From: Candidatus Omnitrophota bacterium
GTDB taxonomy: Bacteria > Omnitrophota > Gorgyraeia > Duberdicusellales > 4484-171
Assembly (NCBI GenBank): GCA_021735655.1
Contig: JAIPGM010000008.1
Coordinates: forward strand, 1 to 64,000
Direction of reading: 5' to 3'
DNA length: 64,000 nucleotides
The position numbers and the translations under genes are program-made. The notes below the pieces were generated by a model. It searched no databases. It saw only the letters and a list, made by a program, of their open reading frames with translations, and was not told where the DNA came from. Shown here one piece after another: positions 23,526 through 45,771 of this stretch (position 1 is its first letter; every line of letters starts with the position of its first letter).

Positions 23526-23714
23526 ATGAGTGGTGAAATTTTAACTGTTGGCGATGTCTGTGAATATTTGAAGATACCACGTTCAACCCTTTATAAGCTT
23601 TCTAAAGATAAGATTATCCCGGCTTTTAGGGTTGGTCGGCACTGGCGTTTTCAAAAGGAAAAGATTGAAGCCTGGTTGGAGGGGCAAACTAGCGAAAAGG
23701 TTAGTCGGCAATAA
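23526..23714 (+). CDS. Excisionase/MerR-superfamily helix-turn-helix DNA-binding protein
   Basis: LTVGDVCEYLKIPRSTLYKL..IPAFRVGRHWRFQKEKIEAWL matches excisionase-family HTH (TIGR01764-like); first gene of the lipid operon. Confidence 0.65.
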   Translation: MSGEILTVGDVCEYLKIPRSTLYKLSKDKIIPAFRVGRHWRFQKEKIEAWLEGQTSEKVSRQ

Positions 23715-23715
23715 T

Positions 23716-24312
23716 ATGTGGTATTGGGTTTTTAAGCATATATTTTGGATTTTATTCACTGTCCTTTTTAGGCTTAAGGTAGAGGGTTTAGATAATTTAC
23801 CGCAAAAGACAAATTTTATCTTAGCGGCTAATCATGCTAGTTTTTTAGACCCGCCTTGTATTATGGCTGGTATCCCAATGAGGGTTTATCCGATTGCCGC
23901 AAGACATCTTTATAAGGTAGGATTAGTTGGCTGGTTTTTAAGAAAAATAAATGCTTTTTCAGCCGGAGGATCATCAAGCCTGGCAGTTAAACTGTTAATG
24001 GAAGGCAAGAATGTTGGTTTATCTCCAGAAGGAAAAATCAGTCTTAATGGTCAACTTAATGAATTTAGAAGAGGGGTAGCTTTGTTAGCGGCAAAAACCG
24101 GTCGGCCGGTTGTTCCTTGCGCTATTTTTGGTGCTTACGAGGCTCTTCCTTATGAAGCTAAATTTCCTAAATTATTTTCACCAATTAAACTAAAGATAGG
24201 CAAACCAGTGTATCTTTTAAAGGAGTTTGATGATGAGATTGACCCTATCTATCTGCGCGAAGGTACTTTTAAGATTCAAAATACAATAAAGGAGTTACTT
24301 AATGAAGAATAA
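23716..24312 (+). CDS. 1-acyl-sn-glycerol-3-phosphate acyltransferase-family (PlsC-like) acyltransferase
   Basis: NHASFLDP (HxxxxD) and SPEGKIS motifs; start taken at the internal Met right after the upstream stop (track ORF 23632 overlaps the HTH gene). Confidence 0.7.
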   Translation: MWYWVFKHIFWILFTVLFRLKVEGLDNLPQKTNFILAANHASFLDPPCIMAGIPMRVYPIAARHLYKVGLVGWFLRKINAFSAGGSSSLAVKLLMEGKNVGLSPEGKISLNGQLNEFRRGVALLAAKTGRPVVPCAIFGAYEALPYEAKFPKLFSPIKLKIGKPVYLLKEFDDEIDPIYLREGTFKIQNTIKELLNEE

Positions 24313-25888
24313 GGGTTTAGTAAAAATAATTGTTTCTCGGACCATACCAGCCGATATTCCTAGTATAGTTCGGGCCCTAAGCAAAGTTGAAGAATTCCCT
24401 GAATATATAGCGACAATTAAACAGGCCTCAATAATAGAAAAATCCCGTAACAAGATGAAAACGAAATGGCTTGTTCAGGTTGACCATGTCCCAATAAGTT
24501 GGATAGAGGAAGACACTTTAAATCTTATAAAAAATACGATTACTTTTAAAGCCGTCGAAGGGGATTTGCAAGAATTTAAGGGGGAGTGGAAGTTTCAGGC
24601 TAAGCCTGAAGGAACCTTGGTTACTGTGACTGCTTATTTAAGAATCGACATACCAGCGATAAAAGATTTCGTTAATACTTATGTAGAAAAGATGCTAGTT
24701 AAGAATTTTACGGCGATATTAAAAGGTATCGAGAAGCGTTTAATTTCAATAAGATATAAAGGCCAGGGAAAAGATGAGATTAAAAAGATAGCCGGATTTG
24801 GAATCATTGGCCATTTGTATAATTTTTATCATTTGGAAAAGTGCCTTAAGATGCTCAACCCTGACTTTAAGATGCCTTCACGAGAATTTTTGGGAAATCT
24901 GTTTAACGTTACTCCTTCGTTCAAGCTTTACGATATAGTAGACTTTAAGTCTAAATCCGGAGGTAGCGTTGATGGATGTTTCATTGTTGCCACTTTTATT
25001 CCTGATTTAATTGAAAAAGATATCTGGTCGATATTTTCGAAGGTGGTCCGGGCCTGTAAGATTGCTGAGAAACACGGGGTTGGTATAGTTACCTTAGGTG
25101 GCTTTACTTCGATTGTTGCCGAGCGGATTGGTCAGGCAATTAGTGAACAGGTTAACGTTCCGATTACCACTGGAAATACCTTTACTGCCGCAATGACCTT
25201 AGAAGGAGTTTATCGGGCGGTTAGAGCTTTAAATTTAGATATTGGTTCGTTAAAGGTAGCTATCGTTGGCGGGACCGGAGACATTGGAAGTGCTTGTGCT
25301 CGAGTTTTAGCTGATCAGGTCAAACAATTGTCTATAACTGGTAGGACCAAAGCTAATTTAAAACAGCTTAAACAAGAACTTAGCAAAAAGCATAAAGCCA
25401 GGATAGTTGCAACTACTAATAATAAAAAGGCAGTAAGTGATGCTGATGTAATTATTGCTGCAGCTAGTGCTACCGAGTCAATACTTTCGATAGATTGGTT
25501 TAAGCCAGGGGCGATAATTTGCGATGTCGGCTACCCAAAGAATATTTCTTATGCCCAGACCGAAAGAGATGATATTCTTATTTTTTCTGGAGGTCTAGCT
25601 CGGAGCCCTAGTTCAATTAAGCTTCCGATTGATTTAGGCTTACCGAACTCGGAAGTTATCTATGGTTGTTTTGCTGAGGCGATTATTTTGTCTTTAGAAA
25701 AGCGTTATGAAAACTACAGTTTTGGTCGGGGAAATATTACTCCTGAGAAAATTAAAGAAATAAAAGAGCTAGGAGAAAAACACGGCTTTGAAGTTTCCCG
25801 ATTCTGGTGGGGTGACAGGCTGCTCGATCAAGCGGCTATCGACAGAATAAAAGAAAGAGTTAATCTTGGAAAAGAACAACTAATATAA
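24302..25888 (+). CDS. Fusion: N-terminal SRPBCC (START/polyketide-cyclase-like) domain + C-terminal acyl-ACP reductase (cyanobacterial AAR family, aldehyde-forming)
   Basis: C-terminal 340 aa align block-by-block with the Synechococcus AAR sequence as recalled (GIIGHL, GIVTLGGFTSI, TTGNTFTA, VAIVGGTGDIGSA, GYPKN, GCFAEAIILSLE, NYSFGRGNIT..I..LGEKHGF); N-terminal 150 aa has SRPBCC-like pattern. Confidence 0.65.
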   Translation: MKNKGLVKIIVSRTIPADIPSIVRALSKVEEFPEYIATIKQASIIEKSRNKMKTKWLVQVDHVPISWIEEDTLNLIKNTITFKAVEGDLQEFKGEWKFQAKPEGTLVTVTAYLRIDIPAIKDFVNTYVEKMLVKNFTAILKGIEKRLISIRYKGQGKDEIKKIAGFGIIGHLYNFYHLEKCLKMLNPDFKMPSREFLGNLFNVTPSFKLYDIVDFKSKSGGSVDGCFIVATFIPDLIEKDIWSIFSKVVRACKIAEKHGVGIVTLGGFTSIVAERIGQAISEQVNVPITTGNTFTAAMTLEGVYRAVRALNLDIGSLKVAIVGGTGDIGSACARVLADQVKQLSITGRTKANLKQLKQELSKKHKARIVATTNNKKAVSDADVIIAAASATESILSIDWFKPGAIICDVGYPKNISYAQTERDDILIFSGGLARSPSSIKLPIDLGLPNSEVIYGCFAEAIILSLEKRYENYSFGRGNITPEKIKEIKELGEKHGFEVSRFWWGDRLLDQAAIDRIKERVNLGKEQLI

Positions 25889-25898: not shown

Positions 25899-26897
25899 AT
25901 GAAAGTGCTAGTTACCGGAGCTGACGGGTTTTTAGGTTCAAATCTGATTAGGCATTTGCTTGTTGCCGGGCATAAGGTTAAGGCCTTGATCCACAGTGAT
26001 AAGGATTACGATGCTTTAAGCGGGCTTAAGGTTGATAAGTTAAAAGGCGACGTCCTTAGTCCAAAGTCGATTGATAAGGCAATGGCTGGGATTGATGCTG
26101 TATTCCATCTAGCCTCTTTATATAAGTTTTATCCTTGGTGGCAGAAAAAGGCTGGTCAGATCTATAAAGTAAATGTTCAAGGCACAAGAAATGTTTTAAA
26201 AGCCGCCAAAAAAAACAATATCAAACGTTTTATTTTTACCAGCAGTATTGCTTCTTTAGGTAAACAGCTTGGTAAAAAACCGAGCGACGAAACAACCGTG
26301 CTTAATCTAAAAAGTAGAATTAGTCACTATGCCCGTTCAAAAGTATTAGCTGAAAATGAAGTTTTGAGTTTTGTCAGACAAGGCTTACCGGCAATAATTT
26401 TAAATCCAGCAGCTTTAATCGGTGAACGTGATTTTAAGCCAACCCCAACCGGTCAGATGATTATAGATTTTTTAAATCATAAGCTTCCGGTGACTTTTAA
26501 TGGGATGATACCGTTGGCTGATGTTGATGATGTAGCTAGGGCTCACCTGGTAGCTCTTGATAGGGGTAGAGTCGGTGAGCGTTATATTCTTTGTAATAAT
26601 CGGGCCTATCCTTTGAAGGAGTTATTTTATTTAGTTGAGCAAATATCCGGAGTTTCTGCTCCGCGGTTAAAGATACCTTATCCTTTGTTAATGAGTTTTC
26701 TTTATTTTGATGAGGTTTTTTCTTATTTTTTAAAGAAAAGACCGCTTTTATCGAGCTCGGCGGCAAGATTTTTCCGCCGGGCAACGGTATTTGATAATAG
26801 TAAGGCAGCCAGGGAGTTGAGTTATGCGACCACTCCGATTACTACTAGTTTAGAAAAGGCCGTTAACTGGTATAAGGAAAATAGCTATGTCCAATAA
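25899..26897 (+). CDS. NAD(P)-dependent epimerase/dehydratase-family (extended SDR, 3beta-HSD-like) reductase
   Basis: VLVTGADGFLGSNL Rossmann motif, YxxSK (YARSK) active site. Confidence 0.7.
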   Translation: MKVLVTGADGFLGSNLIRHLLVAGHKVKALIHSDKDYDALSGLKVDKLKGDVLSPKSIDKAMAGIDAVFHLASLYKFYPWWQKKAGQIYKVNVQGTRNVLKAAKKNNIKRFIFTSSIASLGKQLGKKPSDETTVLNLKSRISHYARSKVLAENEVLSFVRQGLPAIILNPAALIGERDFKPTPTGQMIIDFLNHKLPVTFNGMIPLADVDDVARAHLVALDRGRVGERYILCNNRAYPLKELFYLVEQISGVSAPRLKIPYPLLMSFLYFDEVFSYFLKKRPLLSSSAARFFRRATVFDNSKAARELSYATTPITTSLEKAVNWYKENSYVQ

Positions 26898-26959: not shown

Positions 26960-29083
26960 ATGTTAGATCTGATTTTTAATCCAGCTAATTATTATTGGAA
27001 TCCTCATGCGGTTCTCTATCATTTAGTAGGAATTCTTACTTTGCTTGAGGGCATTTTTATTTTTAGTCAGAATCGTAAATCCTTAGTAAATTTAGCCTAT
27101 GGCCTTAGTTGTTTATCAGTTGCTCTTTGGCTTACCGGAACCGGCATGGCTTTAAACAGTAAACTTGAACTAACTGCTTTAATTTGGACCAGGACTTATT
27201 TCTTTTTAGGAGTAATATTTAATACTCCTTCGATATACTTTTTTTCAGTTGCTTGGCAGAAATCGCTTTTTCCTCAAGAGGAAAACAAAAAAATAAAAAT
27301 AGTAATTTTTAACTTTCTTTGCGGTTTGGGGTTCTATATTTTTTGTCTTAACTCTAATCTTTTTATCCAGGGTTTCTGGAATCATTCCTGGGGGTTTTAC
27401 CCTAAGGCCGGCAGTCTTTATTTTATTTTTGTCGGTTGGGTTTATGCTTTGATGATGCTTATGTTGTTTAATTTCATCCAGGTTTACCGCAAGGGGGGTG
27501 ATCCGGTTATAAAAAAACAAGCTAAATTAATGATTATTGCTTTTTCGATTGGCTACCTGGGCACAGCCGAGTTTTTGATGGACTATGGATTTACTCTTTA
27601 TTTTTTAGCCTTTATTCCGGTGTTTATCTGTATTACTATTGTCGGTTACAGCGTTATTCGCTATCGGACTATGGATATTGAAACGGTAATCCATAAGACC
27701 GCTTTATGGATTTTTTCTTATTCGCTTATTGCGGCTCCGATATTTTTTCTCTATAACGGGCTGTCTGAGAAGATTGAGAGTTCTAACTTATTGTTGTTTA
27801 TTTTTTGGACAGCTAGTTTTTTGGCGGTTACCGTTTATTTACGGTTAATTCAACCAAAAATTGATCATTTTTTCCAAAGACGTAAAGCTAATTTGGAAGA
27901 CATTTCTAGTGAATTTACCAAAAATCTTGTCCATTTAAAGGGTCTTAATCAGCTAATCGAACGCATCAAAGAAACAATCACTAATGCTTTTTATCCGCAG
28001 AATATCGATATTTTAATCTATGGCCAGGATGATGAAAGATATCAAGATGAGCCATTTTTGCTTTGGTTGGTTAAGAATGACAAAATTGCCTATCGTGATT
28101 TTATTGAAATCGATCCGGCTTATTCAGCAATTCGTAGCGATGCCAGAAAATATTTCGACTCAGTAGCCGCAGCGGTAGTTGTTCCTTTAGTTTTAAATGA
28201 ACGTCTTTTGGGGGTAATTAATTTAACCAGAAAATCAAACCTAAAACGCTACGCTGCCGTAGATTTTAATTTTTTACGTCTGCTGAAAAACCAGTCGGCA
28301 ATTGCTATATCTAACTCTTTAGTTTATGAGAACATTGAAGAGCAGGTTAAAAGGCGGACTGAGGAGTTAGTTGAGGTGCAGAAGCAATTGATTCAGGCTG
28401 GAAAATTAGCTACTGTTGGTACTTTGGCTGGAGGAGTAGCTCATGAGATAAATAATCCTTTGGCGGCAATTTTAACTAATGCTCAGATGTTGCTTATGTC
28501 ACCGGATGAGCTCAATGTTGAGGAGGCCCGTGAATCATTAGAGTTAATCGAAGAGGCGACCAAGCGTTGTCGAACCATCGTCAGAAAATTAATGACCTAT
28601 GCTCGAAAACCAGTAGAATCAACAACAATTTCTAAAATAAACCTTATTGATGTTGTCAATAAGGTGAAAGCCTTCCTTGATTATCAGTTTAAGCAGGAAA
28701 ATATTCAAATAGTTGTCGTTGCTGAAACTAGCAACTATCCGGTAGTCGGCAATCAGAATGAGTTAGAGCAGGTGGTAACCAATATAGTTTTAAATGCCAA
28801 GGATGCTACGAAGCGGGTTAAAAAAAGCGGCATTATAGATATATCGTTAATGAGCAATGATGGTTGGATAAGGCTGGATATCAAAGATCAAGGCTCTGGC
28901 ATTTCAAAAGACCATGCTTTAAAGATTTTTGACCCCTTTTTTACTACTAAAGACGTAGGAAAGGGGTTAGGTTTGGGTCTTTCAATATCACAGTCGATCA
29001 TTGAGAAGTATAAGGGTTCGATTTTTTTTCATTCTCAGGAAGGTGAGGGCACTATTTTTACCATAAATCTGCCTGAGGCCTGA
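26960..29083 (+). CDS. Multi-TM sensor histidine kinase (7-8 TM, GAF-like, HisKA, HATPase_c)
   Basis: N-terminal ~300 aa polytopic; H-box GGVAHEINNPL; N, G1, G2 boxes (NAKDAT, DQGSGI, GLGLGLSIS). Confidence 0.8.
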   Translation: MLDLIFNPANYYWNPHAVLYHLVGILTLLEGIFIFSQNRKSLVNLAYGLSCLSVALWLTGTGMALNSKLELTALIWTRTYFFLGVIFNTPSIYFFSVAWQKSLFPQEENKKIKIVIFNFLCGLGFYIFCLNSNLFIQGFWNHSWGFYPKAGSLYFIFVGWVYALMMLMLFNFIQVYRKGGDPVIKKQAKLMIIAFSIGYLGTAEFLMDYGFTLYFLAFIPVFICITIVGYSVIRYRTMDIETVIHKTALWIFSYSLIAAPIFFLYNGLSEKIESSNLLLFIFWTASFLAVTVYLRLIQPKIDHFFQRRKANLEDISSEFTKNLVHLKGLNQLIERIKETITNAFYPQNIDILIYGQDDERYQDEPFLLWLVKNDKIAYRDFIEIDPAYSAIRSDARKYFDSVAAAVVVPLVLNERLLGVINLTRKSNLKRYAAVDFNFLRLLKNQSAIAISNSLVYENIEEQVKRRTEELVEVQKQLIQAGKLATVGTLAGGVAHEINNPLAAILTNAQMLLMSPDELNVEEARESLELIEEATKRCRTIVRKLMTYARKPVESTTISKINLIDVVNKVKAFLDYQFKQENIQIVVVAETSNYPVVGNQNELEQVVTNIVLNAKDATKRVKKSGIIDISLMSNDGWIRLDIKDQGSGISKDHALKIFDPFFTTKDVGKGLGLGLSISQSIIEKYKGSIFFHSQEGEGTIFTINLPEA

Positions 29084-29144: not shown

Positions 29145-29591
29145 ATGAATGATTTTTGGGATGTAAATAAAATAAAGAAGGTTTTACCTAAAGACTATCC
29201 TTTTCTTTTTATCGATCGGGTAGTTGAGATTGATTTGGTTGAAAAAAGGATAAAAGGCCTAAAAAATATAACCGTTAATGAGCATTTCTTTTCAAACCAC
29301 TTTCCTGGTAAACCAATTATACCAGGGGCAATTCTGGTTGAGGCAGCCTATCAGGCGAGTATTATTCTTTGTGTTGCTCTTGGTGAGGATAGCCAGTTTA
29401 AGATCGATTACTGTTTAGATAAGGTAGAGGCCAGTTTTTTTAGTAAGGTTAGAGCCGGAGATCAACTTATTTTAGAGGCCAAAGCCGAGAAACTAACAGC
29501 TAAAACAGCAGCAGTCAGAGTGGTTGTTTCAGTAAGTGACAATAAGTGTGCCGAGTTAACTGTTTTTTTAAAGCTAAATAAAGGGGGCTAA
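29145..29591 (+). CDS. FabZ-like beta-hydroxyacyl-ACP dehydratase
   Basis: LPKDYPFLFIDRV...NEHFFSNHFPGKPIIPGAILVEA hotdog/FabZ signature. Confidence 0.8.
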   Translation: MNDFWDVNKIKKVLPKDYPFLFIDRVVEIDLVEKRIKGLKNITVNEHFFSNHFPGKPIIPGAILVEAAYQASIILCVALGEDSQFKIDYCLDKVEASFFSKVRAGDQLILEAKAEKLTAKTAAVRVVVSVSDNKCAELTVFLKLNKGG

Positions 29592-29592
29592 G

Positions 29593-29970
29593 ATGGTTAA
29601 AAGAATTTTAATTATTGAAGATGAACAGATAATAACTAAAAGTTTACAGCGTTTGCTAAAAAAAGAAGGTTATCAGGTAGAGATTTCTAATAACGGGGCA
29701 GATGCTCTTGAGAAAATAAAGGCTGGAGAGTTTAATTTAATAGTCAGCGACATTAGAATGCCAGATATGGATGGCATTGAGACAATTAAAGCTATTCGAA
29801 AGTCTCTCACCGAGCAGGGCAAGCCTTTGATTCCTGAGATATTAATTACCGGTTATGCTGATGAGTCTAAATATCAGGAAGCTTTGGAGCTAAAAGTTGC
29901 CGATTACCTCTATAAACCTTTTGACATTAAAGATTTCCTAGAGGCAGTTAGGAGAAATATCAATGCTTAA
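29593..29970 (+). CDS. Stand-alone CheY-like response regulator
   Basis: ILIIEDE, DIRMPDMDG, receiver fold, no output domain; overlaps fabG start. Confidence 0.8.
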   Translation: MVKRILIIEDEQIITKSLQRLLKKEGYQVEISNNGADALEKIKAGEFNLIVSDIRMPDMDGIETIKAIRKSLTEQGKPLIPEILITGYADESKYQEALELKVADYLYKPFDIKDFLEAVRRNINA

Positions 29971-30700
29971 AGGAAAAACTGCAATTATTAGCGGAGCCAG
30001 CCGTGGCATTGGCCGGGCTATTGCAATGAAATTAGCCACCGAAGGTGCAAATATATCTTTTAGTTATTTAAACAGCAAAGTTGCTGCTGATAAATTAGAA
30101 AATGAGATCAATTCGCTGGGTGTAAAAGCTAAGGGCTATCAATTAGATATAAAGGATTTTGACTCAGTAAGTAAGTGGGTCAGTGATACTAAGGAAAGTT
30201 TCGGTGGTTTAGACATCATAGTTAATAATGCCGGAATTATTATTGATAAAGCTCTGGCCTTGATGGAACACTCAGATTGGAAGAGTGTTTTAGATACTAA
30301 TTTAGGCGGTTTATTTAACTTAACCCGGGCAGCAATTATAACTTTAATAAAACAAAGGTCCGGTCAAATTATTAACATTACTTCGGTAACCGGAATGGTC
30401 GGGATGGCTCGTCAGACGAATTATGCGGCAACTAAGGCCGGAATCATCGGCTTTACCAAGTCTTTGGCCAGAGAAGTTGGTTCTTATAATATAAGAGTTA
30501 ATGCGATTGCTCCGGGCTTTATTGAAACTGATATGCTCAGCGGCCTAAAAGATAAATATCGAGAAGATGTCACTCAACAAATTCCTTTGCGGCGGTTTGG
30601 CAAGCCTGAAGAAGTCGCTGGTTTGGTAAGTTTTTTGGCTAGTGAAAAAGCAGACTATATTACCGGCCAGGTAATAGTTGTTGATGGCGGGATGACTTAA
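29963..30700 (+). CDS. fabG: 3-oxoacyl-ACP reductase (FabG-type SDR)
   Basis: TAIISGASRGIGRAIA, NNAG, YAATKAG (YxxxK) motifs. Confidence 0.85.
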   Translation: MLKGKTAIISGASRGIGRAIAMKLATEGANISFSYLNSKVAADKLENEINSLGVKAKGYQLDIKDFDSVSKWVSDTKESFGGLDIIVNNAGIIIDKALALMEHSDWKSVLDTNLGGLFNLTRAAIITLIKQRSGQIINITSVTGMVGMARQTNYAATKAGIIGFTKSLAREVGSYNIRVNAIAPGFIETDMLSGLKDKYREDVTQQIPLRRFGKPEEVAGLVSFLASEKADYITGQVIVVDGGMT

Positions 30701-30703
30701 TTT

Positions 30704-31936
30704 ATGGATAAAACTGTTGTTGTAACTGGAGTCGGCGTACTTTCTCCAAACGGGATTGGCAAAGCTGCTTTTTGGCAGGCCTTAAAAGATGGTAAGTCGG
30801 GAATTAAGCCGATTACTATTTTTAATCCTGGTTTTTTTAAGAGTAAACAAGCCGGAGAGATATCTGATTTTAAGGCTGAGGAGTTTTTAGGGACAAAAGG
30901 ACTTCAAAATACCGATCGAGCTACTAAATTAGTTTGTTCAGCCTCAAAGTTGGCCCTGGAGGATTCAGAGTTAAATATCACTGAGCGAAACACCGACAAT
31001 ATTGGAGTAGTTACCGGGACCACACTTTCATTATGGAATATTGCTGAATTGAGTCGGGAAATGGTTGAAGACGGCCCGCAATTTGTTACTGCCGGAATTT
31101 TTCCCGGAACTACCATAAATAGCGCATCGAGCCAGATATCAATTCGTCATAAGATTAAAGGTTTTAATACTACGATTTCAACCGGCTATACTGCGAGCCT
31201 AGATGCTCTTAAATATGCTACAAATTTCATTAAGCTTGGCCGAGCAAAGGCAGTTTTAGTCGCTGGAGTTGAAGGTTTAACTTTTGCCGGGTTTACTGGT
31301 TTTTATAAGATTGGTTTTTTAGCCGGCATAAAGGGGGAGGAAATATCCTGTCCTTTTGATAAAAGAAGGAATGGAATCGTTTTAGCTGAGGCAGCAGTAG
31401 TTTTAGTTGTTGAAGATGCTGAGCACGCTGAGGCCAGAGGAGCTAAGATTTATGCTGAGCTAGCTGCCATTGAGAATTCATTTGATGCTTTTCGGGCTGC
31501 TAAATATGAGCCTCAGGCTAGTGGTTTAAAAAGAACGATGCTTAAAGCTTTAAAGTCAGCTAAGCTGCATGGGGAAGATATTGATTATGTTTCTTCAGCG
31601 GCTAATTCAGTTCCTCAGCAGGATGCTTTAGAGACTATGGCAATAAAGGAAGTTTTTAATATTTATGCTGAGAAGACTCCGGTAAGCGCAATTAAGTCAA
31701 TGGTTGGTGAGTCGGTGAGTGCCGGAGGAATCATGCAACTGACAGCCGCTTTAGGTTCCCTTGAAGAAGGGTTTATCCCGCCGACAATAAATTATCGAGA
31801 AAAAGATCCTGAATGTGACCTTGACTACGTAGTTAATCAGGCTAGATCGCAAGAAGTAAACAATATATTAGTGAATAATTTTGGTCCTGGCGGCAATAAT
31901 GCCACGGTTGTCGTCAAAAAATACGGAGGTGTATAG
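30704..31936 (+). CDS. Ketosynthase-like protein lacking the catalytic Cys-His-His triad (chain-length-factor-like KS partner)
   Basis: Thiolase/KS fold throughout, but ISTGYTASL replaces the xTACSS Cys motif, SSAANSVPQ replaces HGTGT and KSMVGESVSAGG replaces GHxxGAAG. Confidence 0.7.
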   Translation: MDKTVVVTGVGVLSPNGIGKAAFWQALKDGKSGIKPITIFNPGFFKSKQAGEISDFKAEEFLGTKGLQNTDRATKLVCSASKLALEDSELNITERNTDNIGVVTGTTLSLWNIAELSREMVEDGPQFVTAGIFPGTTINSASSQISIRHKIKGFNTTISTGYTASLDALKYATNFIKLGRAKAVLVAGVEGLTFAGFTGFYKIGFLAGIKGEEISCPFDKRRNGIVLAEAAVVLVVEDAEHAEARGAKIYAELAAIENSFDAFRAAKYEPQASGLKRTMLKALKSAKLHGEDIDYVSSAANSVPQQDALETMAIKEVFNIYAEKTPVSAIKSMVGESVSAGGIMQLTAALGSLEEGFIPPTINYREKDPECDLDYVVNQARSQEVNNILVNNFGPGGNNATVVVKKYGGV

Positions 31937-32187
31937 TGGTACCCGAAGATTTAGGAAAACAAATTAAGGATATAGTCGCAAGAGTTATTGAAATTGAGCT
32001 TGATCAGGTTACTCCCGATGCTGACTTTATTAATGATTTGGGAGTAGATTCTTTGAAGGCAATTGAGATTACCGGAGCCATTGAGAAAGCCTTTCGGGTA
32101 GTTGTGCCGGAAGAAAAGATTCGTGATATTCGCACCCTTAACCAGGCGATCAGTTTAACTCAGCAGCTGCTCCAAGCAAAAGGATAA
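31936..32187 (+). CDS. Acyl carrier protein
   Basis: 83 aa, DLGVDSL phosphopantetheine-attachment motif. Confidence 0.75.
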   Translation: MVPEDLGKQIKDIVARVIEIELDQVTPDADFINDLGVDSLKAIEITGAIEKAFRVVVPEEKIRDIRTLNQAISLTQQLLQAKG

Positions 32188-32189
32188 GA

Positions 32190-32639
32190 TTGAAAATGAC
32201 TTGGGATAAAGAAAAAGTAAAGTCTATTCTGCCGCAAAGAGAACCTTTTTTATTTATTGATGAGGTAATTGAGGTAGATGAAGGTAAAAGAATAGTTGCT
32301 AAGAAGTATCTTGATCCTAAAGCTGATTTTTTCAAGGGGCATTTTCCCGGTAATCCGGTTATGCCTGGGGTTTTAACTATTGAAGCTATGGCTCAGGCGG
32401 CAATATTAGTTTATTCAACCGCAAAACCAGAAATAGCCAAGAAGAGGCCAGATTATTATTTTGGTAGCGTTAAGGCAAAGTTTAAATTGCCAGTTTTTCC
32501 TAATGAAACATTAATTTTAGAGGCCGAAATTATTAAAGTTACTGATTTTGGCGGAGTAGTAGATACAATTGCCAGAGTAAAAGATAAAGTAGTAGCTCAA
32601 GCAAGCAGTACTTTTGGGGTGAAGTTGAGAGATGAATAA
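32190..32639 (+). CDS. FabZ-like beta-hydroxyacyl-ACP dehydratase (second copy)
   Basis: LPQREPFLFIDEV...FFKGHFPGNPVMPGVLTIEAMAQ. Confidence 0.8.
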   Translation: MKMTWDKEKVKSILPQREPFLFIDEVIEVDEGKRIVAKKYLDPKADFFKGHFPGNPVMPGVLTIEAMAQAAILVYSTAKPEIAKKRPDYYFGSVKAKFKLPVFPNETLILEAEIIKVTDFGGVVDTIARVKDKVVAQASSTFGVKLRDE

Positions 32640-33852
32640 CGATAGACGAGTAGTGGTAACTGGTATTGGGGTAATCTCAGCAGTTGGTAATGGCAAAGAG
32701 ACTTTCTGGAAAGCAATCAAGGAGGGAAAGTCCGGAATAAGCGAAATTACTTCAATGGATACTTCAGTTTATAAGTGCCACTTAGGTGGTGAGGTGAAGG
32801 ATTTTAATCCTGAAGAGTTTATTCCTAAGCGGAGAATAAAATTTCTTGGGAGATCTTCTCAACTAGCCATAGCTGCATCAAGTCTCGCTTTAAAAGATGC
32901 TAAGCTTGACTATAAAAGCACTGAAAGAAAGGAAATGGGGGTTATTGTTGGGACAACTACTGGCGAACGACCCTTGGAGGAGCTTTTAGCCTCTTGGGCT
33001 AAGGGTGGCTTTAAAGATGTTGACCGGGCAAAAGTATTTCAAGCCACAGTGAATAATATTTCGGCTAATGTTGGAATAGAGTTTAAGGCTCGAGGGGTAA
33101 ATTATCTTATTCCTACGGCTTGCGCTGCCGGAAATTACGCAATCGGTTGTGGATTTGATTTAATTAGAAGTGGGGATTTAAACTTTGCTTTAGTTGGCGG
33201 AGCCGATGCTTTTTCTAAATTTGCTTTTACCGGGTTTCAAAGGATTTATGCTATGAGCCCTGACTTTATGCGTCCTTTTGATAAAAATAGAAGAGGGATG
33301 ATGCAGGGGGAAGGTTCGGGAATGCTTCTCCTAGAGTCTTACAAATCAGCTAAGAAAAGAGGTGCTGATATCTATGCTGAGGTTTTAGGCTATGGCTTAT
33401 CTTGTGATGCTTATCATGCGACAGCACCTGATCCAAAAGGAATAGCTAAAGTTATGGAGAAGGCCTTAGCTGAGACCGGCCTAACCTATAAAGATGTAGA
33501 TTATATTTGTGCTCATGGAACCGGAACCGGTCCAAATGATAAGGCCGAGTGCATAGGTATTAAGGCGGTTTTTAAAGAACGCTCTAAAGAGATTATGGTT
33601 AGTTCAATAAAATCTATGCTTGGTCATGCTATGGGGGCAGCTTCGGCAATTGAAGCAGCTGCTTGTTGCCTAGCGGTCAAAGATGATATCGCGCCGCCAA
33701 CCATAAACTATGAGACCCCTGATCCTGATTGTGACATAGATTGTGTCCCGAATAAAGCCAGAAAGGCAAAGATTAATGTAGCCCTTAATAATGGTTTTGC
33801 TTTTGGCGGTAACAATGCCTGCGTGGTTATTAAAAAAATAGAAGATGCCTAA
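32632..33852 (+). CDS. Beta-ketoacyl-ACP synthase II-type (FabF-like), catalytically intact
   Basis: PTACAAGNYAIG (Cys), CAHGTGTGPND (His), KSMLGHAMGAAS (His), C-terminal NGFAFGGNNA. Confidence 0.85.
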   Translation: MNNDRRVVVTGIGVISAVGNGKETFWKAIKEGKSGISEITSMDTSVYKCHLGGEVKDFNPEEFIPKRRIKFLGRSSQLAIAASSLALKDAKLDYKSTERKEMGVIVGTTTGERPLEELLASWAKGGFKDVDRAKVFQATVNNISANVGIEFKARGVNYLIPTACAAGNYAIGCGFDLIRSGDLNFALVGGADAFSKFAFTGFQRIYAMSPDFMRPFDKNRRGMMQGEGSGMLLLESYKSAKKRGADIYAEVLGYGLSCDAYHATAPDPKGIAKVMEKALAETGLTYKDVDYICAHGTGTGPNDKAECIGIKAVFKERSKEIMVSSIKSMLGHAMGAASAIEAAACCLAVKDDIAPPTINYETPDPDCDIDCVPNKARKAKINVALNNGFAFGGNNACVVIKKIEDA

Positions 33853-35326
33853 TAAATATGACGTTATAGTTATTGGCGCTGGGATCGGCGGATTAACTGC
33901 TGCTGCCATACTAGCCAGAAATGGCAAAAAGGTGTTGGTTTTGGAGAAGAATCCTATAGCCGGAGGTTATGCGGTTAATTTTAAGAGGGGTGAGTTTGAG
34001 TTTGATGCTTCTTTACATTTGCTAAACGGGTTTTTTCCTGGAAAACCAACTTATCACTTTTTGCAATTAGCCGGAATTGATAATAAAGTAACTTTTTTAA
34101 AACCCGAATATCTTTATCGTTCAGTTTTTCCGGATTACGATATCAGAGTGCCACAATGTGACCCTAAAGCCTATATTAATATTTTAGCTAAATATTTTCC
34201 TAAAGATAAGCCCAAGCTTGAAGAATTATTTAGTTTGATGTATCGTATATTTTGTCGAATTCAAGATATCGAAGGTGACAAAATATCACCGGCTGAGTTA
34301 ACTGGTTATATCGGTAAGACCCATCAAGATGTTTTAGATGAATTCAAAATTAGTAATCAGCTGGCCGCTTTAATATCACAAGTTTGGCCTTTTATTGGTA
34401 CCCCGCCGTCTCAGCTTCCTTTTTTAGTTTTTTTGTCATCTTTCAGTGATTTTATTTACAATGGTGGATATTATCCGAAAGGCGGCGGCCAAGCAATTTC
34501 AGATGCTTTGGTTGATGTAATTTGTGAGAACCAAGGAGAAGTTATTTTCAAAGAAAAGGTTAGCAAAATTCTTATCGAAGGTAATTCAGCGTATGGTTTA
34601 GTGGACCAATTCGGTAATGAGTTTTTTGCCAAAGAAATAATTTCAAACATTGATGCTAATTTTCTTTTCGGTGAGTTGATTGAAAATAAATATTTGCCTA
34701 GTGATTTTTTAGATAAAGTTTCTCGTTTTAAGCCATCAATTTCGGCTTTCCAGGTTTACTTAGGTTTAGATATCGAAGCAGGCAAACTCGCTATAAACGA
34801 CTATACTATATTTTCTAATCCTGACTATGACTTATCTAAACAATATCAAGAATCTTTGGTTAATAATGTTGAGGTGGTTCCTATAGAAATAAGTTTTCAT
34901 AACTCTCTGTTTGATTCTGGCTTTCCTAAATCAAGCACTTTGAGTATAGTTTCTTTGGCCGGCTATGATTTTTGGCAAAATCTATCAAAACAAGAATATG
35001 CGGTAAAAAAGAAAAAATTGGCCGATATTTTAATTAAGCGAGCTGAAGACTTTATTCCTGGTTTATCGGGAAGGATTAAATTGATTAATATAGCTACGCC
35101 AATTACTATGGAGCGTTATACCGGGAATTCAGCTGGTGCTATTTATGGTTGGAGCCAAACTATGGATCAATATGGTTCAAAGAGGATGCGGCAGAATACA
35201 CCAATTGATAATCTTTTTCTTGTTGGAGCCTGGACTAGACCAGCAGGAGGAGTTTCTGGGGCAATGCAATCCGGAGCAATGGTATCGAAAAAAATCCTAA
35301 TTAATGCAGCTAATGTCAAAAAATAA
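33845..35326 (+). CDS. FAD/NAD(P)-dependent oxidoreductase of the phytoene-desaturase (CrtI/amine-oxidase) family
   Basis: YDVIVIGAGIGGLTAAAILARNGKKVLVLEKN dinucleotide-binding motif, GGYA, C-terminal GAWTRPAGGVSGA. Confidence 0.7.
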   Translation: MPNKYDVIVIGAGIGGLTAAAILARNGKKVLVLEKNPIAGGYAVNFKRGEFEFDASLHLLNGFFPGKPTYHFLQLAGIDNKVTFLKPEYLYRSVFPDYDIRVPQCDPKAYINILAKYFPKDKPKLEELFSLMYRIFCRIQDIEGDKISPAELTGYIGKTHQDVLDEFKISNQLAALISQVWPFIGTPPSQLPFLVFLSSFSDFIYNGGYYPKGGGQAISDALVDVICENQGEVIFKEKVSKILIEGNSAYGLVDQFGNEFFAKEIISNIDANFLFGELIENKYLPSDFLDKVSRFKPSISAFQVYLGLDIEAGKLAINDYTIFSNPDYDLSKQYQESLVNNVEVVPIEISFHNSLFDSGFPKSSTLSIVSLAGYDFWQNLSKQEYAVKKKKLADILIKRAEDFIPGLSGRIKLINIATPITMERYTGNSAGAIYGWSQTMDQYGSKRMRQNTPIDNLFLVGAWTRPAGGVSGAMQSGAMVSKKILINAANVKK

Positions 35327-36623
35327 AAGAATTGTTGTTACTGGATTGGGTCCTTTGTCAGCCATTGGTATGGGCAAGGAGGCTTTATGGAAGTCTGTTT
35401 TAGCAGAAAAGACGGGATTGACTTTAGAAAAATACAGTATCAATGGTCAGGAATTGGGTGACTATTATGCCCATCGGATCAAAGATTTTGATATTAACGA
35501 TTTTAATATTGATAAAAATATTTTGGAAGATATTAAGGCTTGGAAAGAGCAAGCTAATCCCATCGATCTTTTTTATCTTTTGGCTGTAGTTAAGTTAGCT
35601 CTGAGTGATTCCAAAATAAACTATACTAATAGAGCTGAAACAGAAAGATTAGGGTTGATAGTAACGCATGAGAATCCTGGCCTAGACCAATTCTATGAAG
35701 AAGTCATAAACGAGTCTTATGATTTTCTAGTAAAGGGTAATAATAGTGTAATTTCTCGGAAGGATTATTTTCAAGAATTTTATCGAAAATTCGCCAAACG
35801 CGGTTACGAACTCCAGACTTTTATGCCGCTTTTTCATTTAGCTAAAGTTTTTAATATCCATAATTACTCTATATTCTTATGCAATGCTTGTGCTTCGGGT
35901 TTATTTGCCGTCGAGGCAGCCGCTGATATTATTAAAAGTGGTAAATGTAACACAGTTGTGGTTGCCGGGTCAGATTGTACCAGTATTTTTAAATATCTTT
36001 GGTTCAAAGGATTAGATATGTATGCTGAAGATGGTAAGATAAAGCCCTTTGCTAAAAATAGGAATGGTTTTGTTACTGGCGATGGTGGAGCTGGCATCGT
36101 ATTAGAAGATTTATATAGCGCGTTAGAAAGAGGCGCTCATATTTATGCTGAATATTTAGGAGGAGGATTTCATTTAGAGGGTTGGAAAGTTGCTATGCCG
36201 GAGATAAACGGTGATTCATACAAAAAAGCTATCATGCAATCTTTGCAAAGAAGTGATGTTCCAAAAGAGGCAATCGATTTACTTGTACCTCATGGCGTGG
36301 GAACTACGGCTGCCGATTATTATGAGGCAAAGGCTATTACGAGTATATTTGGTAAAAATTGTAAAAAACCTTTAATGGCAGCTTTGAAGCCTTATATCGG
36401 CCATAATTTGGGAAGCACAGCCCTATTGGAATTAGCAATTTCAATATTAGCTTTAGAGAATAATTATTTACCAAAAACACTCAATCTTACCGAAGTTGAT
36501 CCAAAATTAGGAGTTAATTTAGTGACTACTTCTAAAGCTTATGATATGCGAACATTGATGAAGACAGCTTGTGGATTTGCCGGTTACAATGGTTCAGTTA
36601 TTCTAAAAAAATATACTAAATGA
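35304..36623 (+). CDS. Third ketosynthase (divergent KS with intact Cys/His/His)
   Basis: CNACASGLFAV, VPHGVGTTAAD, YIGHNLGSTA motifs; longer N-terminal region than FabF. Confidence 0.7.
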   Translation: MQLMSKNKRIVVTGLGPLSAIGMGKEALWKSVLAEKTGLTLEKYSINGQELGDYYAHRIKDFDINDFNIDKNILEDIKAWKEQANPIDLFYLLAVVKLALSDSKINYTNRAETERLGLIVTHENPGLDQFYEEVINESYDFLVKGNNSVISRKDYFQEFYRKFAKRGYELQTFMPLFHLAKVFNIHNYSIFLCNACASGLFAVEAAADIIKSGKCNTVVVAGSDCTSIFKYLWFKGLDMYAEDGKIKPFAKNRNGFVTGDGGAGIVLEDLYSALERGAHIYAEYLGGGFHLEGWKVAMPEINGDSYKKAIMQSLQRSDVPKEAIDLLVPHGVGTTAADYYEAKAITSIFGKNCKKPLMAALKPYIGHNLGSTALLELAISILALENNYLPKTLNLTEVDPKLGVNLVTTSKAYDMRTLMKTACGFAGYNGSVILKKYTK

Positions 36624-38812
36624 TAGTTTTTAATCTTTTTACAATTTCAGGCTTACTAACTGGAATTACTTGCTCTTTCTTGGCGGTTATTTTACTTATT
36701 TTTGGTCGGGTAAAAGAAGTTAAGCTGACTCGTTTATGGATGATTTTCAACACTGTTGTTGCTCTTTGGGATTTTAGTTTATTTTTTATTGGTCAAGCGA
36801 CAAATAGTTTAGTTGCTTTTGATCGGTGGAGGCTAGCTCATGTACCGGGCTTACTTATAGCCCCGCTTTTTTTACATGTTATTTATGTGTTTTGTGGTAT
36901 TCAGCGACGTAAGTTTTTGGTTTTTTCCTATTTAGCCGCATTAACCTATATAGTTTTAGACTCTTTTAATTTATTAAGCTATACGACCCAATTAATTTTT
37001 GGGGCGTTTTACTATATTAAACCGATTGGTCCGCAATACACTGCATTTGCTACTCTTTGGCTTTATATCATTGCACACTCTTTGTTTGTTTTGTTTCGTT
37101 TCTATAGAACTGCTTCTGGCCATAAGAAAAACCAAGCTTTATATTTTTTAATTGTAATGCTAGTTGGATTTAGCGGGGGATCAACCCATTTTATTACCGC
37201 AATCGCTTTTTCTAAAGGTATTCAAATATATCCTTTTGGGCAATTAGGTGTAGCTTTGTATTGTATAGTAGCTACTTACGCTATCCTTAAATACCGCCTT
37301 ATGGATGTTAGAATATTTGTTTCCCGGGCCGCGGCTTTTCTCATTAGTTATCCTTTCTTTTTGAGTATTCCTTTTATTTTTGCTTATAGGACGCAAGTAG
37401 AGCTTCATTCTTTGATGGGTGCTAATTGGTGGCTTGTGCCGGCTGGTTTAATTATCTTTTTTTCCAGTTTATCACCGATAGCCTATAGCCAATTAAAAAT
37501 TAGGATGGAGGAAAAGCTTCTGGCGGATCAGAAGCGTTACCAAAAATTACTACTTCAGGCAGCAAGTGGTATGGCTACTGAGCATAATTTGAATAAACTT
37601 TCAAAACTCATTGTTTATATTGTTAAGCGGGCGGTAAAGGTAGAATTTGCGACTATTTTTATCGATGATAAAAATGATGGGGTTTACCGGATGAAAGCTT
37701 TTCGGGATACACAACGGGAAGCGCCATTTGCAAATGTGACCTTTCTTTATGAGCACTCTTTTATTAGATATCTAGCTAAGCATAGCGAACCTTGCATTTA
37801 TGAAGAGTTACCAGAAGAGATTAGGGCTTCTTTGGGGGCATTTTCTAGCGCAGCTTTAGTTATACCTTCAGCTGTTCAAGATGAGCTTTTAGGTTTTGTT
37901 ATTCTAGGGGCAAAGCTTAATAAACAACCCTATAGTGATGACGATGTAAATGTTTTTAAGATTCTTTCGCATCAAGCAGCCTTGGCTATTGAGAATAGTT
38001 TATTTCTAGAGGAAACTAAACAGGCACAGGAGAAGATATTTGCTGCCGAGAAGCTAGCTTCAATCGGTGGCATGGCTGACGGAGTGGCCCATCAGATTAA
38101 AAATCGTCTTAATCAATTTTCAGTAGCTAGTGGTGAGTTAAAGTATGAAATAAAAGATTATTTAGCCAAGCATCCGGCGATTACTAAAAATAATAAGGAT
38201 TTGAAGAAAACCCTTAAATATCTTACTGAAATAGCCGACTCTCTCATAAATAATGTAAAGCGTACTGATGGGATAGTTAAGGGAATCCTTAACTTTGCCC
38301 GAGTGGAAGAGACCAGCACTTTTTTCTCTCAGTTTTCTTTAAAAGAGGTAATTGATTTGTCTGCCGAACTATTAAAGATAAAACATGAGATTTTCGAAGC
38401 TCCTTTGGATATTAAGCTAGGTTCTTCAGATACTGTTTATGGTATAAAATCTCAAATTACCGAGGCGGTTTATAACTTATTAGATAATGCTTATGAAGCT
38501 ACTCAGGAGAAGAGAGCTCTCATGACCAAAGAAGGTAGGGATGGTTTTAATCCTCTAATTAAGATTAAGTTAACTCATAAGGCAGGCGTAAATTTGCTTG
38601 AAATTTCCGACAATGGTATTGGGATGAGAGATGAAGATAAAGCGAAAGTGTTTGCACCCTTTTTTACTACCAAATCGTCTTATAAATCAGGAACTGGAAT
38701 CGGGGTGTATGTTGTTAAGCGTATGATTGAAGAGAATCATAAGGGCAAGGTTCACTTTAGTTCCACTTACATGGAGGGAACTAAATTTTTTGTAGAATTG
38801 CCAAAAAAATGA
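36620..38812 (+). CDS. Multi-TM sensor histidine kinase (paralog of 26960..29083)
   Basis: Polytopic N-terminus, GAF-like middle, H-box GVAHQIKNRL, HATPase_c G-boxes (DNGIGM, GTGIGV). Confidence 0.8.
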   Translation: MIVFNLFTISGLLTGITCSFLAVILLIFGRVKEVKLTRLWMIFNTVVALWDFSLFFIGQATNSLVAFDRWRLAHVPGLLIAPLFLHVIYVFCGIQRRKFLVFSYLAALTYIVLDSFNLLSYTTQLIFGAFYYIKPIGPQYTAFATLWLYIIAHSLFVLFRFYRTASGHKKNQALYFLIVMLVGFSGGSTHFITAIAFSKGIQIYPFGQLGVALYCIVATYAILKYRLMDVRIFVSRAAAFLISYPFFLSIPFIFAYRTQVELHSLMGANWWLVPAGLIIFFSSLSPIAYSQLKIRMEEKLLADQKRYQKLLLQAASGMATEHNLNKLSKLIVYIVKRAVKVEFATIFIDDKNDGVYRMKAFRDTQREAPFANVTFLYEHSFIRYLAKHSEPCIYEELPEEIRASLGAFSSAALVIPSAVQDELLGFVILGAKLNKQPYSDDDVNVFKILSHQAALAIENSLFLEETKQAQEKIFAAEKLASIGGMADGVAHQIKNRLNQFSVASGELKYEIKDYLAKHPAITKNNKDLKKTLKYLTEIADSLINNVKRTDGIVKGILNFARVEETSTFFSQFSLKEVIDLSAELLKIKHEIFEAPLDIKLGSSDTVYGIKSQITEAVYNLLDNAYEATQEKRALMTKEGRDGFNPLIKIKLTHKAGVNLLEISDNGIGMRDEDKAKVFAPFFTTKSSYKSGTGIGVYVVKRMIEENHKGKVHFSSTYMEGTKFFVELPKK

Positions 38813-38949: not shown

Positions 38950-39327
38950 TTGAGGAGGTACAATATGAATAAAGTTTTAATAGTTGATGATGAAGTCGAA
39001 ATTACCGAGTTTCTATGCAATTTTTTGAATCGTTTTGATATAGTTAATGAAAGAGCTTCTGATGCCAAAACTGCTTTAGATAAGTTTAACAAATTAAAGC
39101 CTAACTGGGTTTTATTGGACATAAAGATGCCGGGCATGGATGGGTTTGAGTTGTTGGCAGAGTTTAAAAAAATAAACTCAAACATAAAGGCAATGATGAT
39201 TACTGGAAAAGATGACAAGGAATCGCAAGATCGCGCTAAAAAGTTAGGAGCCCTAGATTACATTTTTAAGCCTTTGGATTTAGATGAATTACATCAGAAA
39301 ATTAAAACTCATATTCTTAAAAAATAA
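38950..39327 (+). CDS. Stand-alone CheY-like response regulator
   Basis: VLIVDDE, LLDIKMPGMDG, receiver domain only. Confidence 0.8.
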   Translation: MRRYNMNKVLIVDDEVEITEFLCNFLNRFDIVNERASDAKTALDKFNKLKPNWVLLDIKMPGMDGFELLAEFKKINSNIKAMMITGKDDKESQDRAKKLGALDYIFKPLDLDELHQKIKTHILKK

Positions 39328-42109: not shown

Positions 42110-42242
42110 GGCTTAAACCTCCCTCTAAGGTTCTGTCGCTTGGCAAAGATGATTTCAGAGATTCTAAGCAAATCTCAGAAATTAGATTAGCGACACCGCA
42201 GGTGGAGCAAAGGAAACCTGGAAGCAAAAAAGTTGATTTTTT

Positions 42243-42275
42243 GTTGCCAAAATTGCCCGCTCTCAAAAATGGCGG
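42243..42275. repeat. 33-bp perfect inverted repeat, right copy
   Basis: gttgccaaaattgcccgctctcaaaaatggcgg; with the left copy it brackets only the recombinase gene. Confidence 0.85.
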
Positions 42276-42456
42276 TGTATAGGGGACGCAGTCCGAACCT
42301 TTTATGCAGCCGAAGGTGGTATTTAATGCCTATGAATTCGGCTGCTGTCTCCCTTATCGGCCCACGTGGGCCGATAAGGCATCCCTGCGGCCTCTCCCTC
42401 GCAAAAATCTATATATTTTTAATGCGGCGGCGGAAAATTTTTTTATTTTTTGTAAA
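42273..42456. repeat. 184-bp structured repeat element, copy A
   Basis: About 93% identical to the reverse complement of 48970..49153; contains a perfect 14-bp hairpin CCTTATCGGCCCAC/GTGGGCCGATAAGG and a 9-bp stem GCAGCCGAA/TTCGGCTGC; differences concentrate in a loop. Confidence 0.8.
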
Positions 42457-42730
42457 TAAGGAGTTTTTGCTCGGGTTCGGCCGCACCCCTTGCCACCTTT
42501 GTTAACATTGCGTATTTAATTATATGATATGGTGTTGATTAAGGCAAGTCATTTCCATCTTGGCAGGGTTTTCCTTATTCTGGTAGCCAGTGGCAAGGGG
42601 GCAGCCTCATCGTGGTGAAAGCCTGGCGTGGTTGGCGGTCTGTTCCGCCCCGCCTATACGGCGTGGCTTGGTGGTTATTGGAAAGTCTTCCTCAAACGCC
42701 TGCCTTCCGGCAGGCTTAGGCTTTCAGCCT

Positions 42731-42762
42731 AAAAATAAGAAAAGCCTGCTCTTCAGGCAGGC
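42731..42762 (-). terminator. Rho-independent terminator for the - strand cargo operon
   Basis: - strand GCCTGCCTGAAGAGCAGGC hairpin followed by TTTTCTTATTTTT. Confidence 0.55.
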
Positions 42763-42866
42763 GCTTTCGTCAGTCTTTTATTCCGCAGTAGCGGAATAAA
42801 AAATATACGACACAATCAATAAAAGATTTAAAAAAGTAAAATAAAAATAGGTAGGCTTAATTCGAA

Positions 42867-43079: not shown

Positions 43080-43102
43080 CTTATAGACTTATTCAAGTAA
43101 AC

Positions 43103-45361: not shown

Positions 45362-45423
45362 TAAATCACTCCTACATTTCTACATTTAATTATAATCTAT
45401 TTAACTTTCTAATAACTAACTTT

Positions 45424-45627: not shown

Positions 45628-45771
45628 TAAATTCTCTGTTTCGCTTTTGACAAAATCAGGCCTTTCATCTAACCAGCCTTATTCAAATATATTAAACCAT
45701 CTTTCCGAAATATCCATTTGCTCTCTCATATTATCATCTTTTCATGCTAACATTTTATATTGCCTTACAGG

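Follow-up and report, generated by a model that had tools for sequence, protein, structure and literature searches.

The 64,000-nucleotide stretch analyzed here (the window; contig JAIPGM010000008.1, positions 1 to 64,000 of the forward strand, Candidatus Omnitrophota bacterium assembly GCA_021735655.1) carries a gene cluster that includes three genes of the ketosynthase (KS) family. The subject of this analysis is the first of them, starting at position 30704, which encodes a KS paralog devoid of the catalytic triad; the two intact copies, starting at 32632 and 35304, are referred to as KS2 and KS3. Throughout 29145-38812, neighboring genes either overlap or abut, as those of one operon would (Table 1). 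The FabG gene stops 3 nt short of the inactive KS gene, the first FabZ gene downstream of it overlaps the KS2 start by 8 nt, and the acyl carrier protein (ACP) gene opens with a GTG codon that overlaps the last base of the inactive KS stop codon, which bears out its placement directly after the inactive KS in a preliminary description of this DNA made from the sequence alone.

Table 1. Genes of the cluster and its flanks in the window, by position (amx, proteins from bacteria that carry out anaerobic ammonium oxidation [anammox]; L numbers, loci of the comparison set described in the text; SDR, short-chain dehydrogenase/reductase)
Feature	Coordinates	Strand	Remarks
PlsC-type acyltransferase	23632-24312	+	upstream lipid tailoring
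SRPBCC and acyl-ACP-reductase-like fusion	24302-25888	+	upstream lipid tailoring
HpnA-like SDR	25899-26897	+	upstream lipid tailoring
Seven-transmembrane sensor histidine kinase	26960-29083	+	flanks cluster
Second FabZ-like dehydratase	29145-29591	+	
Single-domain response regulator inside operon	29593-29970	+	PF00072; same place in L001-L004
FabG 3-oxoacyl-ACP reductase	29963-30700	+	TIGR01830, 311.8 bits (cutoff 297.75)
Inactive KS paralog (putative amxFabFmut-like, chain length factor-type subunit)	30704-31936	+	410 aa, ATG start
Dedicated ACP, amxACP-like	31936-32187	+	PF00550, DSL motif
FabZ-type 3-hydroxyacyl-ACP dehydratase, amxFabZ-like	32190-32639	+	PF07977
Intact KS (KS2), amxFabF2-like, putative catalytic partner	32632-33852	+	Cys-His-His, gate Phe
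CrtI/phytoene-desaturase-like flavoprotein ("PDH," kuste3607-like)	33845-35326	+	PF01593, TIGR02734
Third KS (KS3), accessory	35304-36623	+	intact triad, N-terminal-domain insertion
GAF sensor histidine kinase	36620-38812	+	downstream
Response regulator	38950-39327	+	downstream
HD-GYP-type phosphodiesterase	39339-40526	+	downstream

The open reading frame (ORF) of the inactive copy is intact, with zero in-frame stops, and its product has the full length and fold of a KS, as first described. It spans both KS Pfam domains in full (PF00109, E = 1.8e-34; PF02801, E = 3.2e-23) and matches the FabF model TIGR03150 with 340.7 bits (E = 1e-101), short of the curated cutoff of 493.75. An AlphaFold2 monomer model (predicted local distance difference test [pLDDT] score of 79, predicted TM-score of 0.84) reaches TM-scores of 0.84 to 0.86 against FabF structures; its core is confident, and the helix-loop-helix region at residues 109 to 138 has pLDDT values of <50. 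The nearest fold match of the model was Bacillus subtilis FabF (TM-score = 0.84) in a Foldseek PDB set that extends to April 2026 and lacks entry 9s5h, which is discussed below.

Within this fold, the positions that define a condensing enzyme are replaced. With Escherichia coli FabF residues numbered from the initiator Met, Cys164 corresponds to Tyr162 in the window protein (motif ISTGYTASL), His304 to Ala299 (SSAANSV), His341 to Glu336 (KSMVGES), and the gate residue Phe401 to Pro395, and Lys336 is kept as Lys331. The same residues occupied these positions in three independent alignments (HMMER against B. subtilis FabF, BLASTP, and MAFFT with E. coli FabF), none of which revealed a shifted catalytic triad. 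The triad is thus truly replaced, and the earlier reading that the active-site Cys and both catalytic His had gone was correct. Because the Cys, both His, and the gate Phe are lost, the product is no condensing enzyme. KS2 and KS3 both retain Cys-His-His-Lys-Phe in the MAFFT alignment.

The replacements are fixed among relatives. A word-indexed search listed 120 homologs (59 to 100% identity, nearly all 404 to 419 aa), one of them identical and annotated as a protein of a Candidatus Omnitrophica MAG (metagenome-assembled genome). In these homologs, the Cys position holds Tyr (103) or Phe (17), the first-His position mostly Ala (67) or Ser (51), and the second-His position Glu (119) or Asp (1), while the gate position is Pro and Lys331 is Lys in 120 of 120; Asp307 and Glu310 are each kept in 120 of 120 as well. 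Since Tyr and Phe alternate at the Cys position, the hydroxyl is dispensable, and Tyr162 therefore looks like a steric plug and not a new nucleophile. Across the wider family this position holds F, Y, V, T, M, I, E, Q, or G, and the tunnel-lining Phe133-Pro134 is near-invariant, Brocadia included. The nearest standalone relatives in a HMMER scan of 1.84 billion representatives almost all carried the His-to-Glu replacement with the Lys kept. Compared with a 91%-identical ortholog (in locus L001), the gene has a dN of 0.060 and a dS of 1.155 (dN/dS = 0.052) and is under strong purifying selection, not decaying.

The nearest solved relative of the inactive copy is PDB entry 9s5h, chain C (E = 4.7e-110, 371 bits, 46% identity), compared with 257 bits to the top FabF and 184 bits to the actinorhodin chain length factor (CLF) 1tqy_B. 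KS2 has chain B of the same entry as its top PDB match (E = 5.4e-140, 470 bits), followed by the ishigamide KS 6kxd_A. We tie 9s5h to a Brocadia gene pair because its chains B and C are 94% identical to adjacent genes of Brocadia genomes, and from this match chain C can be assigned as the inactive subunit of the amxFabF2/amxFabFmut heterodimer reported by Granatino et al. (bioRxiv 10.64898/2026.05.19.726425); the text of that preprint gives no PDB codes, and the 9s5h and 9s5i entries fit it. Inactive FabF paralogs in anammox clusters had been noted before (Rattray et al. 2009, PMC2649909). According to the preprint, amxFabF2 and amxFabFmut co-purify and form a KS/CLF-like heterodimer, as seen in crystal structures and by cross-linking; each is inactive singly, and together they decarboxylate malonyl-amxACP and make acetoacetyl-ACP. 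Mutating residues of amxFabFmut shifts which chain lengths the pair prefers, and a helix-loop-helix that is disordered in the amxFabFmut homodimer crystal is ordered solely in the heterodimer; it matches the region of low pLDDT in the monomer model of the window protein. The fold of amxFabFmut, too, is nearest that of B. subtilis FabF (10.64898/2026.05.19.726425). By BLASTP, Brocadia residues Phe135, Thr138, and Val139 correspond to Phe133, Thr136, and Thr137 of the window protein.

The likeness extends to the neighboring genes. The top PDB matches of the ACP are 7qv0_D, 7auf_A, and 9s5i_E, and the top five of the FabZ encoded next to it are all amxFabZ (7qv0_A, 8ayb-8ayi). Identities to the Brocadia pituitae components are 43% for the ACP, 43% for FabZ, 54% for KS2, 47% for the inactive KS, and 31% for the CrtI-like protein.

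Given this homology, we consider it probable (about 80%) that the 30704 product is a non-catalytic, CLF-like subunit that heterodimerizes with KS2 and shapes its acyl tunnel. It keeps the thiolase/KS fold and the dimer-interface elements, with its own active site plugged by Tyr or Phe in place of Cys, a small residue in place of the first His, and Pro in place of the gate Phe; the Glu at the second-His position is probably paired with the retained Lys. As in Brocadia, the helix-loop-helix of the inactive subunit would cover and line the tunnel of KS2, its most likely partner, through Phe133, Thr136, and Thr137, and the subunit may thereby stabilize the active KS and set its chain-length preference. 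On the dedicated ACP, the pair would carry out decarboxylation and condensation of malonyl units, and FabG and the two FabZ-type dehydratases would process the β-carbon. The resulting chain, perhaps altered by the CrtI-like flavoprotein, could then pass to the upstream acyltransferase or acyl-ACP-reductase-like enzymes and end up in a specialized membrane lipid.

Comparative genomics agrees with a linked pair. We assembled 86 loci with an inactive copy: exact-protein look-ups gave 6, and scanning one genome for each GTDB species gave 80. By record title, they belong to the anammox genera Brocadia, Kuenenia, Jettenia, Scalindua, Loosdrechtia, and Wunengus and, outside the anammox bacteria, to Omnitrophota, Nitrospirota/Thermodesulfovibrionales, Desantisbacteria, "Planctomycetia," Thermodesulfobacteriota, and one Actinomycetota MAG; the genomes closest to the window locus are Omnitrophota and Nitrospirota. 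Of the 86 inactive copies, 73 have an intact-triad KS no more than 2.5 kb away on their own strand, and 8 of the other 13 are at contig ends. Most non-anammox loci read FabG-mutant-ACP-FabZ-KS2 or mutant-FabG-ACP-FabZ-KS2, "mutant" denoting the inactive copy, and the 60 non-anammox loci include 45 with FabG, 22 with a CrtI-like gene, and 8 with a third KS. The anammox Cluster I loci are uniformly ACP-FabZ-KS2-mutant-PDH-rSAM, rSAM being the gene of a B12-binding radical S-adenosylmethionine (SAM) enzyme.

In a neighbor-joining tree of all KS-family ORFs of these loci (46 bootstrap replicates), 80 inactive copies form one clade apart from the active copies (41/46 replicates). This clade spans Omnitrophota, Nitrospirota, Desantisbacteria, Thermodesulfobacteriota, and Brocadiales. 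KS2 of the window is sister to amxFabF2. Monophyly is recovered in 46/46 replicates for the inactive copies of anammox Cluster I and in only 10/46 for the non-anammox copies, the alternatives being a sister and a nested position of the anammox clade. Pairwise distances among inactive copies follow those among the active KSs across 67 loci (r = 0.88), and the inactive copy evolves about 1.2-fold faster. One old duplication, after which the linked pair co-diverged, fits these data.

Several observations weigh against this heterodimer interpretation or limit how far it can be carried over from the anammox pair. That pair stops in vitro at acetoacetyl-ACP, with no further elongation seen (10.64898/2026.05.19.726425), and the window protein is only 46% identical to the characterized amxFabFmut, from which it differs at the Cys position (Tyr, compared with Val or Thr in anammox) and in gene order (mutant-ACP-FabZ-KS2, compared with ACP-FabZ-KS2-mutant). 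The net charge of the interface segments was uninformative (-3/0 for the window pair and -3/-3 for the Brocadia pair), and this count was dropped because it did not reproduce the published electrostatic asymmetry even for the Brocadia sequences. In addition, in five loci (L018, L019, L041, L049, and L056) the inactive copy is accompanied by FabG and FabZ and no intact KS is in reach, the available sequence extending 7 to 10 kb at least downstream. The two genes therefore need not be adjacent, and part of the family may act alone or together with a KS encoded far away. The inactive KSs of these five loci are of a Phe-Asn-Glu type, named for the residues at the Cys and two His positions, and are trailed only by FabG and FabZ; in L018 the group (9995-12437) sits between riboflavin genes and EF-G. 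The partner of such copies, if there is one, must be encoded elsewhere. Finally, the conservation of Glu336 and Lys331 could reflect a residual catalytic role instead of a structural one.

Taken further, this last point becomes the proposal of a genuine enzyme with a novel chemistry, in which Glu336-Lys331, with Asp307 and Glu310, catalyzes some other reaction of an ACP-bound substrate, such as decarboxylation, isomerization, or the coupling of pre-formed units. The near-complete conservation of these four residues and the prevalence of His-to-Glu among standalone relatives are what such an enzyme would show, the anammox inactive subunit has an open tunnel of its own with a polyethylene glycol molecule inside in the crystal (10.64898/2026.05.19.726425), and a similar idea, of another substrate and function, was put forward for kuste3606 by Rattray et al. 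(PMC2649909). We nevertheless regard it as improbable: either Tyr or Phe occurs at the nucleophile position, which varies still more in the wider family, Asp307 and Glu310 are conserved in active KSs too and hence are not diagnostic, and amxFabFmut alone shows no activity and no cross-linking, with docking simulations that do not bring ACP to its tunnel (10.64898/2026.05.19.726425).

At slightly longer odds, the inactive copy may pair with KS3, or with both KSs in alternative heterodimers at different stages of chain growth. KS3 is intact, is encoded in the same operon, and recurs with the pair in 8 loci that include the closest relatives (L001, L005, and L007), and the preliminary description had named either KS2 or KS3 as a possible partner. 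KS3 is, however, missing from every anammox locus and from 52 of the 60 others, whereas KS2 is found with the inactive copy in 73 of 86; it scores 152 bits against 9s5h_B, compared with 470 bits for KS2, and it is KS2 that co-diverges with the inactive copy. KS3 itself belongs to a separate long-branch clade of the tree. We thus retain KS2 as the likelier partner. That the gene is a decaying pseudogene or a functionless fabF duplicate, an outcome that the preliminary description had allowed for and that the loss of all three catalytic residues and the fragmented copies in L076 and L083 might suggest, is rejected as next to impossible in view of the low dN/dS, the 120 full-length homologs with fixed replacements, the spread of the inactive clade over five groups, and an anammox homolog that is expressed and needed for its partner's activity (10.64898/2026.05.19.726425); L076 and L083 are MAG contigs, and the fragmentation of their copies may come from assembly errors.

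The putative KS/CLF pair is not peculiar to anammox bacteria, and the comparison of loci separates a shared chain-building part from an anammox-specific part. With the Brocadia B12-rSAM protein as the query, matches were found in 22 anammox-type loci, where the gene follows the pair wherever the locus is long enough, and zero Omnitrophota or Nitrospirota loci matched at E ≤ 1e-3. In the window, no ORF of at least 100 aa in the whole 64 kb carries a CxxxCxxC motif, so no radical SAM enzyme is encoded there. The rSAM genes that do occur near non-anammox loci were considered as kuste3608 homologs and rejected, as none matched at E ≤ 1e-3; they are mostly housekeeping genes (RlmN-like, YgiQ-like) several kilobases off, and in L058 a gene of the Radical_SAM_N2 type lies 2.6 kb upstream. 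Among the non-anammox clusters, an embedded rSAM was seen only in L026 from a Deltaproteobacteria MAG, an otherwise Nitrospirota-type cluster in which a 441-aa rSAM gene without a B12 domain (5282-6604) directly follows the ACP gene. One of the 22 anammox-type loci, L057, is labeled Thermodesulfobacteriota; it has Scalindua gene order, Thr-Cys-Glu residues, and an anammox rSAM fragment at its end, and the contig was probably mis-binned from Scalindua.

Beyond anammox bacteria, the same KS/CLF pair is common, occurring in the window and 60 related non-anammox loci; a dedicated ACP and FabZ accompany it there, a CrtI-like flavoprotein often does too, and the pair is subject to strong purifying selection. 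This wide sharing, with the B12-rSAM confined to anammox-type clusters, contradicts the view that only ladderane producers have the cluster and marks the rSAM as the step specific to anammox bacteria. It also accounts for the antiSMASH "ladderane" clusters that have been reported, without explanation, in Omnitrophota and other phyla (10.1101/2022.12.20.521206; PMC7298704), and it points to an uncharacterized lipid pathway of a poorly known phylum. More tentatively, and at somewhat less than even odds, we speculate that KS/CLF-ACP-FabZ(-PDH) is an old, widespread specialized-lipid module of Omnitrophota, Nitrospirota, and their neighbors that makes a non-ladderane chain and that anammox bacteria converted mainly by adding the B12-rSAM. 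The original chain might be, for example, short or medium in length or unsaturated and be passed to the co-clustered acyltransferase and acyl-ACP-reductase-like enzymes. If so, no better single candidate than the rSAM would exist for the step that forms the cyclobutanes, and the clusters without it would serve as natural "minus-rSAM" controls, from whose product the ladderane precursor could be read.

Other features of the window bear on how such a pathway might run. Two sensor histidine kinases, two single-domain response regulators, and an HD-GYP phosphodiesterase interleave with or flank the biosynthetic genes, and this arrangement is kept in L001 and L003, where the homologs of the upstream kinase carry HisKA_7TM, HisKA, and HATPase_c domains and the trio of GAF kinase, response regulator, and HD-GYP protein also trails the cluster. 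The conservation of these interleaved regulators suggests that the lipid pathway is induced by a signal and is not constitutive. No enoyl reductase is encoded within the operon; the sole candidate in the window is an NMO-family flavoprotein (274-1359) that lies 28 kb away and matches TIGR03151 (FabK) weakly (160 bits, cutoff 453). The PlsC-type acyltransferase and the SRPBCC fusion are kept upstream in L001, L003, L008, and L009. On the other hand, the accessory genes of the cluster turn over quickly, as a comparison with L001 shows: the CrtI-like gene between KS2 and KS3 is missing there at the same position, and an 891-aa AMP-binding/ACP/acyltransferase gene takes the place of the HpnA-like SDR of the window. 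Right after the cluster, a serine recombinase ORF (40541-42109, minus strand) overlaps tRNA-Ser(gga) (40585-40675), beyond which the GC content falls to 0.315, the GC skew changes sign, and an Mrr-type restriction endonuclease is encoded (46703-47803). The region 40541-48600 has the appearance of a mobile element that inserted at the tRNA.

Among known systems, canonical FabF (KAS II) is like the inactive copy in fold, length, and the match to TIGR03150 and unlike it in exceeding the cutoff of that model and in having the Cys, both His, and the gate Phe. Type II polyketide synthase (PKS) CLFs, such as those of actinorhodin (1tqy_B) and ishigamide (Iga12, 6kxd), offer a functional analogy, in that an inactive KS paralog heterodimerizes with an active KS and shapes its tunnel, and KS2 resembles Iga11 (6kxd_A, its second-best PDB match). 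The CLFs of aromatic type II PKSs have Gln at the Cys position. The window protein and its homologs have Tyr or Phe there, and its 184 bits to 1tqy_B are less than its scores to FabFs or amxFabFmut; the window cluster, moreover, resembles a fatty acid synthase system in its FabG and FabZ genes and is without cyclases or aromatases. We therefore reject membership in the aromatic type II PKS CLFs: the preliminary description is supported as to the kind of protein, a CLF-type non-catalytic partner, and the family can be narrowed to the fatty acid synthase-like ladderane Cluster I type. As for the aryl polyene (APE) systems it had also invoked, no APE protein was among the 60 PDB matches listed for the inactive copy, which was not compared directly with ApeC, and the FabZ encoded next to the ACP matched the ApeI-like model marginally (30.9 bits, cutoff 28.5) and the ApeP-like model below threshold, both far below its own FabA/FabZ score.

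Fusions provide another analogy. Of the top 150 representatives at 50% identity, 43 are proteins of about 800 aa with an intact-triad KS at the N terminus (one alignment being partial) and, at the C terminus, a KS missing at least one triad residue, and they read as natural KS-CLF fusions. We rejected them as Rosetta-stone support, since no inactive half falls within the 23-tip clade that holds the 30704 product.

Related proteins are found in the second anammox cluster (rSAM kuste2803, FabF kuste2804). Its inactive KS, Kuste2805, has Phe at the Cys position, Glu at the second-His position, and the Lys kept (Rattray et al. 2009, Table 2, PMC2649909), and Kuste2805-type KSs thus share the aromatic residue, the Glu, and the Lys with the family of the window protein. 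They differ from it in being only 37 to 38% identical, basal among the inactive copies, and preceded by a B12-rSAM homolog. Loci L078, L081, and L086 (Scalindua and other Brocadiales) show the corresponding arrangement, rSAM (489 aa)-KS2-inactive KS (Phe-Asn-Glu)-FabG, and their rSAM is homologous to that of Cluster I (E of about 1e-175).

The closest system is anammox Cluster I (kuste3603-3608), with amxFabFmut (KustE3606/Broful02170/Scabro02228; 9s5h, 9s5i). The differences concern the host, an Omnitrophota bacterium here and not an anammox planctomycete; the Cys position (Tyr or Phe, compared with Val, Thr, or Glu in amxFabFmut) and the first-His position (Ala or Ser, compared with Asn or Cys); the gene order, in which FabG and the inactive copy precede the ACP gene; and the content of the window cluster, which additionally contains FabG, a second FabZ gene, a third KS gene, and two-component regulators embedded among the other genes. 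The window protein also falls outside the Cluster I clade, and its cluster is without the B12-rSAM gene that in Cluster I comes right after PDH (kuste3608), so that both defining traits of the anammox ladderane cluster, the B12-rSAM neighbor and the anammox host, are absent. The two proteins are alike in having a full KS fold with the triad lost (46 to 47% identity), Glu at the second-His position, the Lys kept, and the gate Phe lost, and their genes are alike in clustering with an amxFabF2-like KS, an amxACP-like ACP, an amxFabZ-like dehydratase, and a CrtI-like flavoprotein. By sequence, clade, and neighborhood, the 30704 product belongs to the amxFabFmut-type family, and the gene itself is ordinary, clearly belonging to a family that is by now characterized.

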